In this document: positions 21,487-28,266 of the stretch, one piece after another
Numbering within the stretch: the stretch's first letter is position 1
Layout of the letters: every line of letters starts with the position of its first letter
From: an uncultured delta proteobacterium
GTDB lineage: Bacteria; Myxococcota_A; Polyangia; Polyangiales; Polyangiaceae
Direction of reading: 5' to 3'
Assembly (NCBI GenBank): GCA_963841435.1
Contig: CAWJCS010000005.1
Coordinates: 288,001-352,000, forward strand
Length of the DNA: 64,000 bases
Made by a program: the position numbers and the translations under genes
Notes under the pieces: generated by a model
Told to the model about the DNA's origin: nothing
Seen by the model: the letters and a program-made list of their open reading frames with translations, nothing else
The model's database searches: none

Positions 21487-23415
21487 ATGTCATTCGTCTC
21501 CCCCACCCAGGTGACAGGCCTACTCGGGACCGCGGGTCTCCTGGCCGGCCTGCTATCGGTAGGCTGCACCGGAGAGGTCGGCGGCCCCAACGGGCCCGGC
21601 AATCCGATGGGCACCGGCGCATCCCAGGGAGCCGGTGCCACGGGCACGGGCGGGAGCGGCACGGGCGGTAGCTCCGGTGTGGGTGCGGGTGGCAGCTCCG
21701 GCGTGGGCACGGGCGGCAGCTCCGGCGTAGGCACGGGCGGTAGCGCCGGCACGGGTGGCACGGGTGGCACCGGGGGCTCGAGCGGCGCGGTCGGTTGCGT
21801 GGGGACGCACGTCACCACGAGCAAGCGCGTCGTGCGCCTCACGGAGTACCAGCTCTACAACTCGTACACCGCGCTGTTCGGTTCCACCGCGGCCGCGACG
21901 ATCGCAAAAGACGAGGATCCTCCGTCGCTCCTCGAGCGCGAGTTCCCGCCCATCAGCGGTGAGATCAGCGTGAGCGAAGGTCTGTTCGCTCTTTACGATC
22001 GCCTCGCGCAAGCGGCGATGAGCTACGTGTCGGCGAACTCGGCGACCGTCACCTCGTGCGGCGCAACACCGTCCGACACGGCGTGCGTCCAGCAGTACCT
22101 GCTCACGTTCGCCGAGAAGGCCTTCCGCCACCCTTTGAGCGCGGAAGAGCAGAGCGCCATCACGGGCCAGTTCTGGACCGAGATGACCGCCGCGGGGGCA
22201 ACCGCTGCGGAAGCGCTCGCGTATGGCGTCTACGGCGTCTTGAGCTCGCCGAGCTTCATCTATCGCACCGAGTTCGGCAACGACGTGGCGAGCGACGGCG
22301 CGCTCACCCCGTACGAGCTCGCCTCGACCGTCTCGATGTTCCTCACCGATCAGCCGCCGGACGCCGAGCTCTTGACCGCGGCCGCTGCCGGTCAGCTCGC
22401 CACGCCCGACCAGGTGCGCGCTCAGGCCACGCGTCTGCTCGCAACGCCCCAAGCACGAGCAAACCTCGAGATTGCCCTGATCCGCTACTTCAAGCTCACC
22501 AACGCGCCCAACGTCATCCTCAACCCGGAAACGGTGCCGGGCATCACCGTGACGGGCGGCCTGCTCGCCTCGATTTATCACGAGAGCGAGCTCTTCATGA
22601 AGAACACGCTCTGGACGGGGCCGCTCGACGCGCTGCTCACGTCGCGCGACACGTGGACCACCTCGCAGGTCGCCACGCAGATCTACGGGGTCTCGGCGCC
22701 CACCAACACCGACGCGGATGGCTTCGGGCTCGTCCAGCTCCCCGCCGATCGGTCCGGTCTGCTCACGCTCTCGACGTTCCTCACGTCAACCGCGCGCTCC
22801 ACGGGGACCTCGCCGGTCACGCGCGGCCTCGCGGTCAATGGCTCGATCATCTGCGAGGTGAACCCGCCCTTCCCCGAGGTGATCAACCCCGACACCGGTC
22901 AGACCGAGCCCGACCCCGAGGTCGCGGCGGCGATCGCGTCGCTCGCGAACAAGAGCGAGCTCGAAAAGACCCAGTTCCGCGCCATGACGCCCAAGTGCGC
23001 GGGCTGCCACTCGCAGTTCGACGCGTTCGGCATGGTGCTCGAGCCGTACGACTCCGTCGGCCGCTACCGCACCACGGACCTCGAGGGTCGCGCCATCGAC
23101 GCGACGTGGACCACGACGACGCTACCGGACTCGGTGGGCGGCGCGATGGTCACGAGCGCCGCCGAAACCGGCCAGGCCCTCGCCAAAAGCGGCGCGCTCG
23201 ATCGCTGCATGGCCATGAACTTCATCAACTTCGCGCTCACCGAAGTCTCGAAGGGCGGCGCGAACAACACCGACCTCTCCCAGGGCCCGCAGACGGCAAG
23301 CTGCGCCGTGCAAGGGGTCCTCGACAGCTTCGAAGCGACGGACAAGAGCTTCCCGTCGCTCATGCGCGAGATCGCGGCGTCGGAAACGCTAGCCGCGCGC
23401 TCGAAAGGACAGTGA
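21487..23415 (+). CDS. DUF1592/DUF1588/DUF1595 multidomain lipoprotein
   Basis: RLT..QL.N; FAEKAFRHPL; LSSPSFIYRTE; LTPYELAS; RSGLLT; TSPVTRG; CAGCH...D..GRYR. Confidence 0.9.
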   Translation: MSFVSPTQVTGLLGTAGLLAGLLSVGCTGEVGGPNGPGNPMGTGASQGAGATGTGGSGTGGSSGVGAGGSSGVGTGGSSGVGTGGSAGTGGTGGTGGSSGAVGCVGTHVTTSKRVVRLTEYQLYNSYTALFGSTAAATIAKDEDPPSLLEREFPPISGEISVSEGLFALYDRLAQAAMSYVSANSATVTSCGATPSDTACVQQYLLTFAEKAFRHPLSAEEQSAITGQFWTEMTAAGATAAEALAYGVYGVLSSPSFIYRTEFGNDVASDGALTPYELASTVSMFLTDQPPDAELLTAAAAGQLATPDQVRAQATRLLATPQARANLEIALIRYFKLTNAPNVILNPETVPGITVTGGLLASIYHESELFMKNTLWTGPLDALLTSRDTWTTSQVATQIYGVSAPTNTDADGFGLVQLPADRSGLLTLSTFLTSTARSTGTSPVTRGLAVNGSIICEVNPPFPEVINPDTGQTEPDPEVAAAIASLANKSELEKTQFRAMTPKCAGCHSQFDAFGMVLEPYDSVGRYRTTDLEGRAIDATWTTTTLPDSVGGAMVTSAAETGQALAKSGALDRCMAMNFINFALTEVSKGGANNTDLSQGPQTASCAVQGVLDSFEATDKSFPSLMREIAASETLAARSKGQ

Positions 23416-23416
23416 G

Positions 23417-25009
23417 ATGAAATCGTATCGCTTCGCTCGACGCTCGTTCCTCGCCGGCATCGGTGGCGCCGTCGGTCTCGAGATCCTGCTCAGGAACATG
23501 GAGGCCGCAGCGATGGGCGCCGGCGCGCCGCCGCGCTTCTTGATGATGCACTGGCCCGTCGGCACGATCAGGAACCAGTTCATCCCCACGGGCACCGGCA
23601 CTTCCTACAGCACGTCGAAGACGGCTCAGGGTCCCGGCTACATCATCTCGCCGTTCGATACGCCGGAGCTTCGCCCGTACACAATCGCGATGCACGGCTT
23701 CAACATGAACGGCATCAGCGGCCAGGGGGGCGGCCACGAAGACGGCACGCCGTTCGCCACGACGGGCTCGAGCTCGCCCGGGACGCGCGCCAACGGCGGC
23801 GAGGCCGACGACGGCTGCGCCGGCGGGCCGTCGTGGGATCAGATCATGCTGAAGAACGTGCCCGAGCTCTCCCGCAAGGACGGCATGGGTACGATCATCG
23901 GCAAGGGGTATTACAACACGATCTGCGACAAGCGCATCGACTCCTACGAGACGTCGACGCGCTGCCTTTCGTACAGCTACGAGAAGCAGTCGATCAACTC
24001 GGCACGTCCCGGCGGCTCGATCACCGAGAACAAGCCACTCCCGCCCGAGCTCAGCCCGCTCCGCGCCTTCAACGACCTCTTCAGCGGCTTCATGCCCGGC
24101 GGCACGATGAGCGATCCGCAGGCGCTCAAGATCCTGAAGCTCCGAAAGAGCGTGCTCGACTACTCGCTGCGCGAGCTCGACCGGCTCAAGACGCTCGGCC
24201 CGGCAAGCGAGCGGGACAAGATCGATAGCCACGCGGCGGCCGTTCGCAAGCTCGAAGCCCAGCTCACCGATCAGATCAGCAACGGCGGCACCGGCACGAC
24301 CGGGGAATGCACCCTGCCCCCGATGCCGGATTCTTCCCTCACCGGCAAGACGGGCGACACGCTCGGCGGGGACTACAACAATCCGGTCGCCAACCAGTCC
24401 GACGAGACGACCCACGAAGCCGTGGGCAAGGCCCATGCAGCCATCATCCGCGCCGCATTCGCCTGCGACCTCATCCGCGTGGCGACCTTCCAGTGGTCAC
24501 CCGGGACCAATCACGTCTCGTTCAAGGGGCTCGACCCGAACAGCCCGAACACGATCTACATGCACCACCCGCTCAGCCACCGCGTGGGCGACGCGAACTT
24601 CTACAACGGCGCGCGCCCCTCGACGAACGCGTACATCTGGGACGCCATGGTGAATGCCAACCGCTGGTACTTCCAGAAGACGGCCGACATCCTCAACGAG
24701 TTCAGGCTGCAGATCGATCCGCTCGATCCGATGGGCGGTAGCCTGCTCGACACCACGGTGATCCCCATGATCACGGAAGTGGCCGAGGCCGCTCACACTC
24801 GAAACGGGCATGGCGCGTTCATTTTCGGCGGCACCAAGCTCGGCATGCAGGGCGGCCAGTACAAGAGCGTCTCCGGCATCCACAATCAGTTCTGGGTGAC
24901 GGTGGCCCAGGCGTTCCTCGGCTCGAACGCCGTGAGCGCGCTGTCGGGCGAGAGCTACGTGAAGAACGGGGCGAACCCCATCGCGGGGATCTGGTCCGCT
25001 CCGGCCTGA
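23417..25009 (+). CDS. DUF1552 family protein with twin-arginine signal
   Basis: ARRSFL Tat motif; SVLD; AFACDLIRVATFQ; HHPLSH; usual partner of DUF1592, 1 bp downstream. Confidence 0.9.
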   Translation: MKSYRFARRSFLAGIGGAVGLEILLRNMEAAAMGAGAPPRFLMMHWPVGTIRNQFIPTGTGTSYSTSKTAQGPGYIISPFDTPELRPYTIAMHGFNMNGISGQGGGHEDGTPFATTGSSSPGTRANGGEADDGCAGGPSWDQIMLKNVPELSRKDGMGTIIGKGYYNTICDKRIDSYETSTRCLSYSYEKQSINSARPGGSITENKPLPPELSPLRAFNDLFSGFMPGGTMSDPQALKILKLRKSVLDYSLRELDRLKTLGPASERDKIDSHAAAVRKLEAQLTDQISNGGTGTTGECTLPPMPDSSLTGKTGDTLGGDYNNPVANQSDETTHEAVGKAHAAIIRAAFACDLIRVATFQWSPGTNHVSFKGLDPNSPNTIYMHHPLSHRVGDANFYNGARPSTNAYIWDAMVNANRWYFQKTADILNEFRLQIDPLDPMGGSLLDTTVIPMITEVAEAAHTRNGHGAFIFGGTKLGMQGGQYKSVSGIHNQFWVTVAQAFLGSNAVSALSGESYVKNGANPIAGIWSAPA

Positions 25010-25104: not shown

Positions 25105-25335
25105 AAGAGGGGGCCCCCGGCGTCCCGAAGCCTGGAAACCGTGCGGCGGGCATGGGGTCGCGCGACGTCCGCGGAAGATTTCGGTGTGGGCACCGAGGGG
25201 CGGCCCGACGTAATTTGCGGCCACCGCCGACATATTCTCCGAAAACTCGTCGCCGCGGCTCCACGTTTCTGTTACTTGACGGCCGTTGCTAGGGAACCAA
25301 GAGGCTCCCCGGGGAAAAGCAGAGGGTTACGCACG

Positions 25336-26779
25336 ATGTCAAAGCAGACCATGCGCTTTCGAATTTTTAGCTGTGCCGTGCTTGCCGCGGGCAGCGCGAT
25401 GGCACAAGAGGCGCCGGCGGCCGGTGGCGGTGCCTCCCTATCGACGGGTGACGGCGCCAAGGCCAGCATGGAGACGAGCGGCGCGGCTCCCGCGGACGGG
25501 TCGGCATTCGAGCCCTACGAGGAGGGCTACCCGCCGGAAGGCAACGTGCTCGAGATCGGCATCTTCGGCGGCGTCCTCTTCCCGAGCCCGATCCACCAGC
25601 TGCGCAATCACGAGCTTTACCCCACTCACTACAAGTACAACTCCGGGCTCGAGGGCGGCGGGCGCCTCGGATACTACCCGCTGTCGTGGGTCGGCATCGA
25701 AGGCGAAGGCATGGGCGCAAGCTCCAAGGTCAAGGGCGTGGGCGACCTCGCCGTGCTCTTCGGGTACCGAGGCTTTCTGGTCGTGCAAGCACCGACACCG
25801 TACGTCGCCCCGTTCCTCGTCGGCGGCTACGGCAGGCTCGGCGCCGTGAGCCACGCCATGGGCGGCGACGTTGATCAGGGCTGGATGTTCGGCGCCGGCG
25901 CGAAGATCCCGATGACGCACATCCTCGGCCTGCGTGTCGATTTCCGCGACAACCTCACGCCGAACAAGCACCTCGGCAAGGGGCAGGGGCACAGCTTCGA
26001 GCTCCAGCTGGGCCTCTCCGCGACGATCGAGCGGTCGCGCAAGGAACCGCCGCCTCCGCCGCCGGATTCCGACCACGACGGCGTCGGCCGATCCGATGGA
26101 CAAGTGCCCGAACGACGCGGGCGTGGCGCCCGATGGCTGCCCGACGGACATGGACGCCGACGGCGTGCTCGACCGGGACGACTTCTGCCCGCGTGAAGCC
26201 GGGCCCGCTCCGAAGGGCTGCCCGATCATCGACCCGGATCCCGACAAGGACGGCGTGCCGCTGCCCTGCGATCAGTGCCCGGACGAGGCGGGGATCAAGC
26301 CCGACGGCTGCCCGGTGCGCGACAAGGACGGCGACGGCATTCCCGACGACCGCGACAAGTGCCCCGACGCTGCCGAAACCAAGAACGGCTTCGAGGACGA
26401 CGACGGCTGCCCCGACAAGATCCCCGAGGCGGTTCAGAAGTACTCGGGTGTCGTGCCGGGCATCTACTTCGAGAAGGGCAAGGCCGTGATTCGGCCCACC
26501 TCGAAGCGTGTGCTCGATGCCGCGGTCAAGGTTCTCGAGCAGTACCAGAGCATCTCCTTCGAGATTTCCGGGCACACGTCGAGCGAAGGCGACCCGACCG
26601 TCAACGACGAGCTGTCGCTCGCGCGCGCCGACGCCGTGAAGCAGTACTTCGTCGACAAGGGCATCGCCCCGAATCGCCTGAAGACGCGCGGCGCCGGCTC
26701 CTCGGAGCCCGTCGCCGACAACAAGACGCGTTCGGGCCGCGAGCAGAATCGCCGCATCGAGTTCAAGGTCCTGCAGTAG
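25336..26779 (+). CDS. OmpA family protein with thrombospondin type-3 repeats; +1 frameshift at about 26087
   Basis: Beta-barrel N-domain, DxDxDGVxDxxDxCP repeats, OmpA-C (ISGHTS...N.ELS.ARADAVK...NRRIEF). Frame changes right after DSDHDGV. Confidence 0.9.
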
Positions 26780-26869: not shown

Positions 26870-27880
26870 GTGGACGCCTCGGGACGAGCCGAGCACGACG
26901 AGCGTTCCGCGTCGGCGCGCGGCTTCGCCTGGACCGAAGCGCCCGAGCCGCACGCCGAGCGGCGCCGCGCCATGCTGCGCGACCATCCCGAAATTCGCGC
27001 CCTCTACGGCCCTTCGACGCGCACCAAGTACGTCTGCACCGCGCTCGTCGCCGTTCAGCTCGCCGTCGCATACCTCCTCCGCGACGCTTCGTGGGTGTGG
27101 GTCGTCATCGTGGCGTACGCCTTCGGAGGCGTCGTCAACCAGTCGCTCCTGCTCGCGATTCACGAGCTCAGCCACAACCTCGCCTTCCGGCGGCCTGCGT
27201 ACAACCGTCTGTTCGCGGTGTTCGTCAACCTGCCGATCGGCGTGCCCGTGGCGGAGACGTTCCGCTACTACCACCTCCTGCATCACCTCAATCAAGGCGA
27301 CGAGCGGCTCGATACCGATCTACCCACCGAGCTCGAAGGCCGGCTCACGCGCGGGCCCGTCGGCAAGCTCCTCTGGCTCAGCGTGCAGGGGCTCGCGTAC
27401 GCCCTTCGCCCGCTCATCGTCCACCCGAAGCGCCCGAGCCTCGCCGAGCTCGGCAACCTCGTCGTCGTTTTCGCCTTCGACTGGGCGGTGCTGCACTTCT
27501 GGGGCGTGAAATCGCTCGCGTACCTGCCGATCGGCTCGCTCGCCGTCATGGGTCTGCACCCGATCGCCGGCCACTACATTTCCGAGCACTACGTGTTTCG
27601 CCCGGGCCAGGAGACGTACTCGTACTACGGGCCCCTCAATCTCATCGCCTTCAACGTGGGCTACCACAACGAGCACCACGATTTTCCGTACGTTGCGGGC
27701 GCGCGGCTGCCGGAGCTCCGACGCATCGCGCCCGAGTTCTACCGCGACCTTTTGCACCACGGATCGTGGACGGCAACGCTCGTTCGCTACGTCACGCGCC
27801 CGAGCCTCGGTGGTTTTAGCCGCGTCAAACGCCGCACGCGCGGGGACGCGTCGTCGCGCACGACGCCCGCCACCCGCTGA
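26870..27880 (+). CDS. Sphingolipid delta-4 desaturase (DES1/DEGS-like)
   Basis: F.W....EPH..RR..ML..HPEI N-domain; His boxes HELSH, HLLHH, HNEHH; ETYSYYGPLN; SRVKR tail. Confidence 0.9.
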   Translation: MDASGRAEHDERSASARGFAWTEAPEPHAERRRAMLRDHPEIRALYGPSTRTKYVCTALVAVQLAVAYLLRDASWVWVVIVAYAFGGVVNQSLLLAIHELSHNLAFRRPAYNRLFAVFVNLPIGVPVAETFRYYHLLHHLNQGDERLDTDLPTELEGRLTRGPVGKLLWLSVQGLAYALRPLIVHPKRPSLAELGNLVVVFAFDWAVLHFWGVKSLAYLPIGSLAVMGLHPIAGHYISEHYVFRPGQETYSYYGPLNLIAFNVGYHNEHHDFPYVAGARLPELRRIAPEFYRDLLHHGSWTATLVRYVTRPSLGGFSRVKRRTRGDASSRTTPATR

Positions 27881-27897: not shown

Positions 27898-28266
27898 ATG
27901 GTCCGGTCGAACCTCGCCGCGGCGCTCTTCGCGCTGGCGCTCGCCCACGCGTGCGGCGGCGAGTCGAGCCTCGTTCACTCGGGCGATGCCCGTGGGACGA
28001 ACGCCGAGGACGCCGGCGCCGCCGGCGAGGGTCCGGCGTGCGACCCGTCGAGCGAGCACCAGCGCCGCTACATCGGGCTCGGGGCCGAGTGCCCCGGCGT
28101 CGAGTTCCGCTGCTACGATCCGACGACCGTCTTCTGGAACGACTGCGGCTGCGGCTGCGAGGAAGACCCGAATTGCCCCGAAGTCTTCGACTGCTCGCCG
28201 CGCGCGAGCACGCCCTGCACGCCCGAAGAGCTCGCTCACTGTCCGTTCAGCCGGGTGCTCGAATGA
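27898..28266 (+). CDS. Small Cys-rich lipoprotein
   Basis: AHAC lipobox; RYIG...C....F.C.....F.NDCGCGC. Confidence 0.7.
   Translation: MVRSNLAAALFALALAHACGGESSLVHSGDARGTNAEDAGAAGEGPACDPSSEHQRRYIGLGAECPGVEFRCYDPTTVFWNDCGCGCEEDPNCPEVFDCSPRASTPCTPEELAHCPFSRVLE

Follow-up and report, generated by a model that had tools for sequence, protein, structure and literature searches.

Does a myxobacterium possess a eukaryote-like enzyme of ceramide modification and, if so, on which lipid would this enzyme act? The question is raised by a gene, here called DES, in a stretch of 64,000 nucleotides (hereafter the window; C5:288001-352000) from contig CAWJCS010000005.1 of an uncultured delta proteobacterium of the family Polyangiaceae (assembly GCA_963841435.1; 7.78 Mb, 6 contigs, 95% complete). 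The gene had been picked out from the sequence alone as a eukaryote-like sphingolipid delta-4 desaturase (the original prediction). According to our analysis, this open reading frame (ORF) is almost certainly an intact and genuine member of the DEGS/Des1 family, and its product probably modifies C4 of the sphingoid base in the bacterium's own dihydroceramide.

The DES Gene and Its Product

The gene, its domains and the histidine clusters of its product are located in the window as follows (all on the + strand).

26870..27880, +, DEGS/Des1-family gene: 336 aa, GTG start, stop included (Pfam, alignment, AlphaFold2 model)
26924..27016, +, N-terminal Lipid_DES domain, residues 19-49 (C5:314924-315016): Pfam PF08557, E 1.3e-13, 50.5 bits (cut-off 23)
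27095..27748, +, FA_desaturase domain, residues 76-293 (C5:315095-315748): Pfam PF00487, E 7.5e-24, 85.3 bits (cut-off 29.7)
27161..27175, +, His box 1, HELSH (H98, H102): both His invariant in alignments of 11 and of 50 sequences
27272..27286, +, His box 2, HLLHH (H135, H138, H139): invariant in both alignments
27665..27679, +, His box 3, HNEHH (H266, H269, H270): invariant in 11 sequences, at least 90% conserved in 50
27557..27589, +, extra His cluster, HPIAGHYISEH (H230, H235, H240): invariant in 11 sequences

The Lipid_DES domain was found by a profile search of the genome's contigs in a single copy, DES being the sole one of the 8 FA_desaturase genes of the genome to carry it; no NCBIfam model matched the protein above its cut-off. 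The 11-sequence alignment joins the DES protein with ten named eukaryotic proteins, namely Amia DEGS2, Sitophilus DES1, Haematobia ifc, C. briggsae TTM-5, Toxocara DES2 and proteins from Saccoglossus (a hemichordate), Diaphanoeca (a choanoflagellate), Lipomyces, Chlorella and Picochlorum. To these proteins DES is 44-52% identical, and between the Lipid_DES domain and the SRxKR motif at the C-terminus it is colinear with them, so that the end-to-end colinearity with animal and fungal DES1, initially seen by eye, is borne out. The motifs named at that time are all present in the translation, among them FAWTEAPEPHAERRRAMLRDHPEI, AYAFG, LAIHELSHNLAF, NLPIGVP, DTDLPTELEG, YALRPLIVHPK, GLHPIAGHYISEHYVF, ETYSYYGPLNLIAFNVGYHNEHHDFP and SRVKR. 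The 65 invariant columns of the alignment include all 11 conserved histidines (H98, H102, H135, H138, H139, H230, H235, H240, H266, H269 and H270), and in the 50-sequence alignment H230 and H240 are again invariant and H235 is at least 90% conserved. Judged by these alignments, the agreement of the DES protein with the eukaryotic family is far beyond chance. The codon usage had been described as matching the host, and indeed the GC content at third codon positions (GC3) is 0.88 in DES and 0.84-0.93 in the neighbouring ORFs.

The AlphaFold2 model built from the 50-sequence alignment has a mean predicted local distance difference test score (pLDDT) of 91.4 and a predicted template modelling score (pTM) of 0.88. 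A sequence search of the PDB with the DES protein returned nothing relevant and no DEGS structure. By Foldseek, the PDB matches of the model at E <=0.01 are only the desaturase-like subunits of the algal Ycf2/Orf2971-FtsHi complexes and AlkB; three chains, including AlkB 8sbb (6.3e-4), fall at E <=0.001 and are followed by AlkB 8f6t (5e-3) and SCD1 4zyo (0.08). The predicted fold is thus that of a membrane di-iron desaturase.

Distribution in Bacteria and Existing Annotation

The original prediction implied that such a gene is a rarity in bacteria, and in this respect it does not hold: members of the family are present in several bacterial phyla, in hundreds of species, and are already annotated as such. 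A word-indexed protein search gave 5033 matches at E <=1e-3 among 8000 candidates scored, the best 120 of which are all 66-82% identical to the DES protein. Among these 120, many bear the JGI names 'sphingolipid delta-4 desaturase' or '4-desaturase/C4-monooxygenase', and the relatives from Polyangiaceae metagenome-assembled genomes (MAGs) are named by NCBI 'fatty acid desaturase' or 'sphingolipid delta(4)-desaturase family protein'. The closest relatives among the matches listed are proteins of Polyangiaceae MAGs (75-82%) and of Cystobacter fuscus (72%). An exhaustive search of 50%-identity representatives yielded 2686 clusters at E <=1e-3, of which 453 reach E <=1e-30. In bacterial and archaeal contigs taken from one genome per species there were at least 598 matching stretches, at least 570 of them confirmed as relatives, and the best 80 of these at least 598 stretches are the bacterial DES loci studied here. 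In the 18 closest loci the sole named isolate is Cystobacter fuscus Cbf 10. At 61-75% identity the best 80 comprise Polyangiaceae MAGs and Cystobacter fuscus, and at 39-50% Saprospiraceae, Cyclobacteriaceae, Ekhidna, Aureispira, Ignavibacteriota, Balneolota, Acidobacteriota, some Pseudomonadota MAGs and one Marinamargulisbacteria MAG.

Myxococcota carry the gene sporadically: the Lipid_DES domain was found in 18 of the 401 sampled genomes, and these 18 include 4 of the 29 genomes that represent the window's family besides its own. The window DES is a further member of a widespread, automatically annotated and apparently experimentally untested bacterial branch; the word 'desaturase' is absent both from the Black Sea sphingolipid paper and from the spatial-organisation paper. 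As far as the window gene itself is concerned, our results mostly confirm the existing automatic annotation.

Candidate Genes for Ceramide Synthesis

Together with the original prediction, a search of the genome for serine palmitoyltransferase (Spt) and ceramide synthase genes had been proposed. The class I/II aminotransferase profile has 11 matches in the genome, 9 of which, the two weakest being left out, were scanned against NCBIfam. For the match at C3:1062729-1064273 the best NCBIfam model is serine palmitoyltransferase NF047600 (448.7 bits), followed by NF047599 (383 bits), both scores being below the equivalog cut-offs, with BioF (345 bits) and Kbl (318 bits) lower; a second aminotransferase match is BioF-like. 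On the same strand, 3' of the Spt candidate, lie an ORF of 375 aa and an Epimerase-type short-chain dehydrogenase/reductase (SDR). The 375-aa ORF has no match in Pfam or NCBIfam; its nearest ESM-Atlas clusters are named 'N-acetyltransferase family protein' (scores 0.98-0.99), PF00583 being present on 33-47% of their members. The outcome of the proposed search is a candidate Spt gene, for which the Spt model is the best one yet scores below its cut-off, with a candidate GNAT gene and an SDR gene downstream. Inside the window there is no class I/II aminotransferase (Spt-type) match, just as the original prediction had stated.

The whole candidate cluster, G000:C3:1062729-1068043 (L093:9730-15044), consists of the Spt-like gene, an unannotated gap of ~1.7 kb, the GNAT-like 375-aa gene and the Epimerase-type SDR gene. 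The gap may be an insertion, since the Spt and GNAT genes are directly adjacent in several related genomes. If the first start is used, the Spt-like gene has an N-terminal extension of ~115 aa; truA lies 5' of the cluster. PF13444, tried as a model of the bacterial ceramide synthase, matched neither this genome nor the Caulobacter control and was discarded as the wrong model.

Bacterial DES Loci with Spt Clusters

The best 80 bacterial DES loci were taken with flanks of up to 8 kb per side. An Spt-like gene, 40-46% identical to the candidate of the window genome, is present in 11 of them, a GNAT homologue in 12 and an SDR homologue in 7, all at 4-7 kb from DES, and the triad occurs together in Ekhidna-type Bacteroidota. 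No locus of the Polyangiaceae clade is among those with Spt, GNAT or SDR homologues. In the Ekhidna locus (L079:5980-16734) one strand carries genes for a DUF3108 protein, a PLD-like protein, DES and a CDP-alcohol phosphatidyltransferase, and the opposite strand those for KAS, a FabA-like protein, an SDR, a GNAT (matching PF00583, E 2e-7), an Epimerase-SDR and Spt, after which comes a nucleotidyl transferase gene. Judging by its gene content, this locus looks like a gene cluster for a complete phosphosphingolipid pathway, with an acyl-chain module of its own and with DES inside, and it is the best independent evidence that bacterial DES proteins act on sphingolipids. The similarity of the Spt, GNAT and SDR proteins between the window genome and Ekhidna agrees with the published data (Padilla-Gomez et al.). 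The DES of a 'Rickettsiales' MAG (L037), which in the trees is sister to that of Marinoscillum inside the Bacteroidota clade, has the same Spt and GNAT neighbours.

Co-occurrence in Myxococcota Genomes

The pathway genes were then compared with DES over the 401 Myxococcota genomes. An Spt profile threshold of 1e-90 was abandoned, as the Kbl and BioF paralogues pass it too, and was replaced by <=1e-120 and then by the GNAT marker. At E <=1e-15 this marker is found in 166 of the 401 genomes; in the window's family, where about one genome in six has DES, all but one of the 29 further genomes (28/29) carry it. It is present in 13 of the 18 DES-positive genomes (G000, G190, G195, G280, G295, G026, G087, G136, G147, G196, G256, G272 and G336) and in 153 of the 383 DES-negative ones, that is, the enrichment goes in the expected direction and is modest. 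Spt-like genes at <=1e-120 occur in 92/401 genomes, 9 of the 18 DES-positive ones included, though the split by Spt score is imperfect, the strict score being passed by 15 of the 30 genomes of the window's family. One or the other marker is present in 16 of the 18 DES-positive genomes. The Spt and GNAT genes are directly adjacent in many genomes (e.g., G190:C213, G295:C87, G100:C12, G390:C5, G026:C169 and G087:C36). The picture is that of DES as an accessory modification gene, found in a minority of lineages, nearly all of which have a candidate ceramide pathway, and not as a part of the core pathway.

Phylogeny and Relation to Eukaryotes

Outside the clade of the DES protein itself, the best 50%-identity representatives are 47-51% identical to it and, where named, they are eukaryotic (Auanema, Gnathostoma, Picochlorum, Diaphanoeca, Lipomyces); the profile search supplied many named metazoan DES1/DES2 proteins as well as Lipomyces and Chlorella sequences. 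By organism name, 4/10, 1/10 and 0/10 of the cluster representatives were labelled as eukaryotes, one more cluster being labelled 'archaeon' (a MAG). Three trees were built. The FastTree tree has 221 rows, namely the DES protein, 78 of the 80 loci (without L007, which is partial, and L045, the second DES copy of its contig), 134 representatives no shorter than 290 aa, Picochlorum and 7 paralogues from the same genome. The 'quick' IQ-TREE tree (LG+C20 with posterior mean site frequencies, PMSF) has 81 rows, and the 'careful' one 72, the outgroups, P0204 (long branch) and P0152 (odd composition) being left out.

The 74 DES rows stand apart from the 7 FA_desaturase paralogues of the genome, with a Shimodaira-Hasegawa-like approximate likelihood ratio test (SH-aLRT) value of 85, not starred, and with very long outgroup branches. 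The DES protein is thus placed inside its family, and not among ordinary bacterial fatty-acid desaturases, the grouping that had been named as the one to refute the original prediction. All three trees agree that the Polyangiaceae-type sequences form a clade (support 100/99, starred), and that Cystobacter fuscus, which belongs to another class, is nested in it. The sister of this clade is the Marinamargulisbacteria MAG (97/91, starred), and both belong to a group of 34 rows (88/88, not starred) together with Metazoa (99/94, starred), unnamed sequences and a choanoflagellate-containing group that includes an 'Alphaproteobacteria' MAG contig. The DES proteins of Bacteroidota, Ignavibacteriota and Balneolota constitute a separate clade (100/100, starred), those of Acidobacteriota, Pseudomonadota and Myxococcales MAGs another (100/99, starred), and the fungi and green algae are found elsewhere, on an unresolved backbone.

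The relevance to gene transfer between myxobacteria and eukaryotes, which had been put forward, was overstated, the trees being no more than suggestive of it. Holozoa are the nearest labelled neighbours (88/88), and bacteria form one clade in 0 of the 200 bootstrap trees, the starred branches forcing at least 4 label changes. The approximately unbiased (AU) test nevertheless did not reject bacterial monophyly at 0.05 (difference in log-likelihood 36.1, p-AU 0.078) and so no direction of transfer is shown; this test opposed 34 bacterial rows to 16 eukaryotic and 7 outgroup rows, the unnamed rows being free, and its groups were defined by domain, yet after a tree had been viewed. We find it unlikely that, among prokaryotes, the Polyangiaceae-type DES clade stands nearest to the holozoan or even to the ancestral eukaryotic dihydroceramide desaturase, so that the enzyme would have been transferred between early eukaryotes and a lineage of myxobacteria. 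If true, sphingolipid desaturation would join those genes of sterol, plasmalogen and fatty-acid metabolism for which a Myxococcota origin has recently been proposed. A preprint of 2026 gives, in its available part, ~20 potential contributions of Myxococcota to eukaryotic lipid metabolism, DEGS not being among the genes listed there, and assigns the sphingolipid genes GBA2, SGPL1 and SGPP1 to Asgard archaea. In the available part of a 2026 Nature paper, sphingolipid metabolism is globally associated with Asgard, and a 2026 PNAS paper on the myxobacterial origin of plasmalogen synthesis has sphingolipids solely in its reference list. The gene would gain evolutionary weight only if a better-sampled phylogeny resolved the link between myxobacteria and eukaryotes, and the family as a whole would become more interesting if the proximity of Polyangiaceae and Holozoa were resolved or the chemistry demonstrated.

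Several sequences are out of place in the trees: the DES of Cystobacter fuscus Cbf 10 (L003; class Myxococcia), of the 'Rickettsiales' MAG (L037) and of the 'Alphaproteobacteria' MAG (L021) are found in clades of other taxa, due either to horizontal transfer or to mis-binned contigs. Some eukaryotic DES proteins have about twice the normal length, namely P0302 (Thraustotheca, 658 aa), P0303 (Brevipalpus, 686 aa) and P0316 (Panagrolaimus, 715 aa). The oomycete protein P0302 scores 905 bits, as for a tandem duplication, and one long DES has an extra PF00687; these proteins are possibly fusions or gene-model errors.

Proposed Function and Its Alternatives

The function that we propose for DES may be outlined as follows. 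The protein, a member of the DEGS/Des1 family, would be a di-iron enzyme that is embedded in the membrane and depends on oxygen. Dihydroceramide would be supplied to it by the candidate pathway of contig C3, with its genes for an Spt-like protein, a GNAT-type N-acyltransferase and an SDR reductase. Abstraction of hydrogen at C4 would then lead to a 4,5-trans double bond, giving ceramide, or to a 4-hydroxyl, giving a phytoceramide-type lipid, with electrons probably coming from a donor other than the eukaryotic one. The original idea of a bacterial ceramide desaturase or C4-hydroxylase finds support in the domain architecture, the complete set of metal-binding histidines, the predicted fold, the candidate ceramide pathway and the linkage of DES to Spt in other bacteria; the substrate, the regiochemistry and the kind of activity, desaturase or hydroxylase, are what we infer from these sequence data.

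A number of observations weigh against such a role. None of the listed neighbours of DES in the window is lipid-related, no other ORF from the 14-42 kb part of the window recurs next to DES in the 18 closest loci, and a scan for promoter-like and terminator-like sites around DES found none; for these reasons we regard the window DES as standing alone. The DES gene and the Spt cluster are located on different contigs (C5 and C3), the Spt candidate is below the equivalog cut-off of NF047600 (448.7 vs. 640 bits), and the search for cytochrome b5 (PF00173) in this 95% complete genome gave no match, so that the electron donor would differ from that of eukaryotes. The GNAT marker is lacking in 5 of the 18 DES-positive Myxococcota genomes (G208, G259, G333, G339 and G354), two of which, G259 and G354, have neither pathway marker, and no significance test accompanies the enrichment, because the genomes are kin. 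Our literature search, which covered titles and the beginnings of abstracts, retrieved no paper on a bacterial DES member and no biochemical evidence for one.

Part of these observations could be accounted for by an enzyme that has the DEGS fold and a different substrate, either some other amide- or ether-linked myxobacterial lipid or a fatty-acyl chain: neither the window nor any of the 18 closest loci shows sphingolipid genes linked to DES, and the genomes without the GNAT marker or without both markers would fit as well. Yet the family-specific N-terminal Lipid_DES domain is intact, the full-length identity to enzymes named DES1/DES2 is 44-52%, and wherever a bacterial DES is clustered its partners are Spt-type genes, all of which makes a different substrate unlikely in our opinion. 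The gene might also have been acquired recently from a eukaryote, such as a prey or a host organism, and have no established role, in line with Metazoa and a choanoflagellate as the nearest labelled non-bacterial neighbours and with the patchy occurrence in Myxococcota (18/401 genomes) and in the window's family (4/29 others). This we consider highly improbable, because GC3, at 0.88, is like that of the neighbours and because the bacterial Polyangiaceae-type clade (100/99, starred) is deep and broad, with identities of 61-82% and more than 100 clusters at 90% identity; moreover, DES is not nested in any eukaryotic clade, and its catalytic residues are all intact. Within the role in C4 modification of dihydroceramide, which we continue to prefer, the enzyme could be a DES2-like C4-hydroxylase producing phytoceramide-type lipids instead of a delta4-desaturase. 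The proteins named DES2 (Toxocara DES2, 48%; Amia DEGS2, 50%) are as similar to DES as those named DES1 (52% and 49%), and many relatives carry the JGI name '4-desaturase/C4-monooxygenase', but nothing in the sequence data discriminates between the two activities, and we put the hydroxylase forward tentatively, as a possibility on the less likely side.

The sphingolipids of bacteria are, as a rule, described as having saturated dihydro-bases, and the literature searched yielded no bacterial enzyme that modifies C4 of the sphingoid base. If a DEGS-type enzyme does work in myxobacteria and in many Bacteroidota, common soil and marine bacteria would make eukaryote-style ceramides or phytoceramides. 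A working bacterial enzyme would also offer a soluble-pathway context for studying a medically important enzyme family that is without a solved structure.

Genomic Surroundings of DES

In the window, DES is preceded, in this order, by genes for a DUF1592/1588/1595 protein, a DUF1552 protein and an outer-membrane beta-barrel/TSP3/OmpA protein, and is followed by a small Cys-rich ORF and by genes for a UDG-family glycosylase, a UPF0047 protein, a MopE-repeat protein and CorA. The only gene common to 18/18 of the closest loci is DES itself, and an operon including the window DES, considered at one stage, was dropped in the absence of conserved neighbours in these loci. Other features of the region are the following.

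21487-25009, +, planctomycete-type gene pair: DUF1595/DUF1592/DUF1588, then DUF1552 (HXXSHH)
25141-26779, +, OmpA-family gene 5' of DES with an apparent frameshift, the break being near 26083-26090
27898-28266, +, Cys-rich ORF of 122 aa, 18 bp 3' of DES, with a signal-peptide-like N-terminus

In the OmpA-family gene, ORF 25141-26196 (signal peptide and OMP beta-barrel) reads sensibly up to DSDHDGV, and ORF 25934-26779 (TSP3 and OmpA), in the next frame, takes up the TSP3 repeat with ADPMDKCPN; the gene is either a real pseudogene or the victim of an assembly indel. The Cys-rich ORF has no Pfam match and does not accompany DES in any of the 18 closest loci.

Comparison with Known Systems

The DES1 family was reportedly defined by Ternes et al. 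in 2002. Like the eukaryotic DES1/DEGS1 and DES2/DEGS2, the window protein combines Lipid_DES with FA_desaturase (PF08557 and PF00487), and it has in common with them the three His boxes, the HPxxGHxxxEH cluster and a similar length; the N-terminal Met-Gly of the animal DES sequences in the alignment is not present in it. Eukaryotic DES1 draws its electrons from cytochrome b5, a domain that the window genome does not show, and the route to the substrate, located in the endoplasmic reticulum in eukaryotes, would here be of the bacterial soluble Spt/GNAT/SDR type. With SCD1, AlkB and the DesA-type desaturases the window protein shares the predicted fold and the His-box chemistry, whereas its sequence identity to the SCD1 and AlkB structures is 13-17% and the Lipid_DES domain is absent from such desaturases. 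The Bacteroidota branch of DES (39-47% identity) is a separate clade, in which the Ekhidna-type DES adjoins an Spt cluster, in contrast to the window DES, which is alone. In family and architecture, the window protein agrees with its bacterial DES-like relatives from Polyangiaceae, Cystobacter, Bacteroidota, Ignavibacteriota, Balneolota, Acidobacteriota and some Pseudomonadota MAGs.

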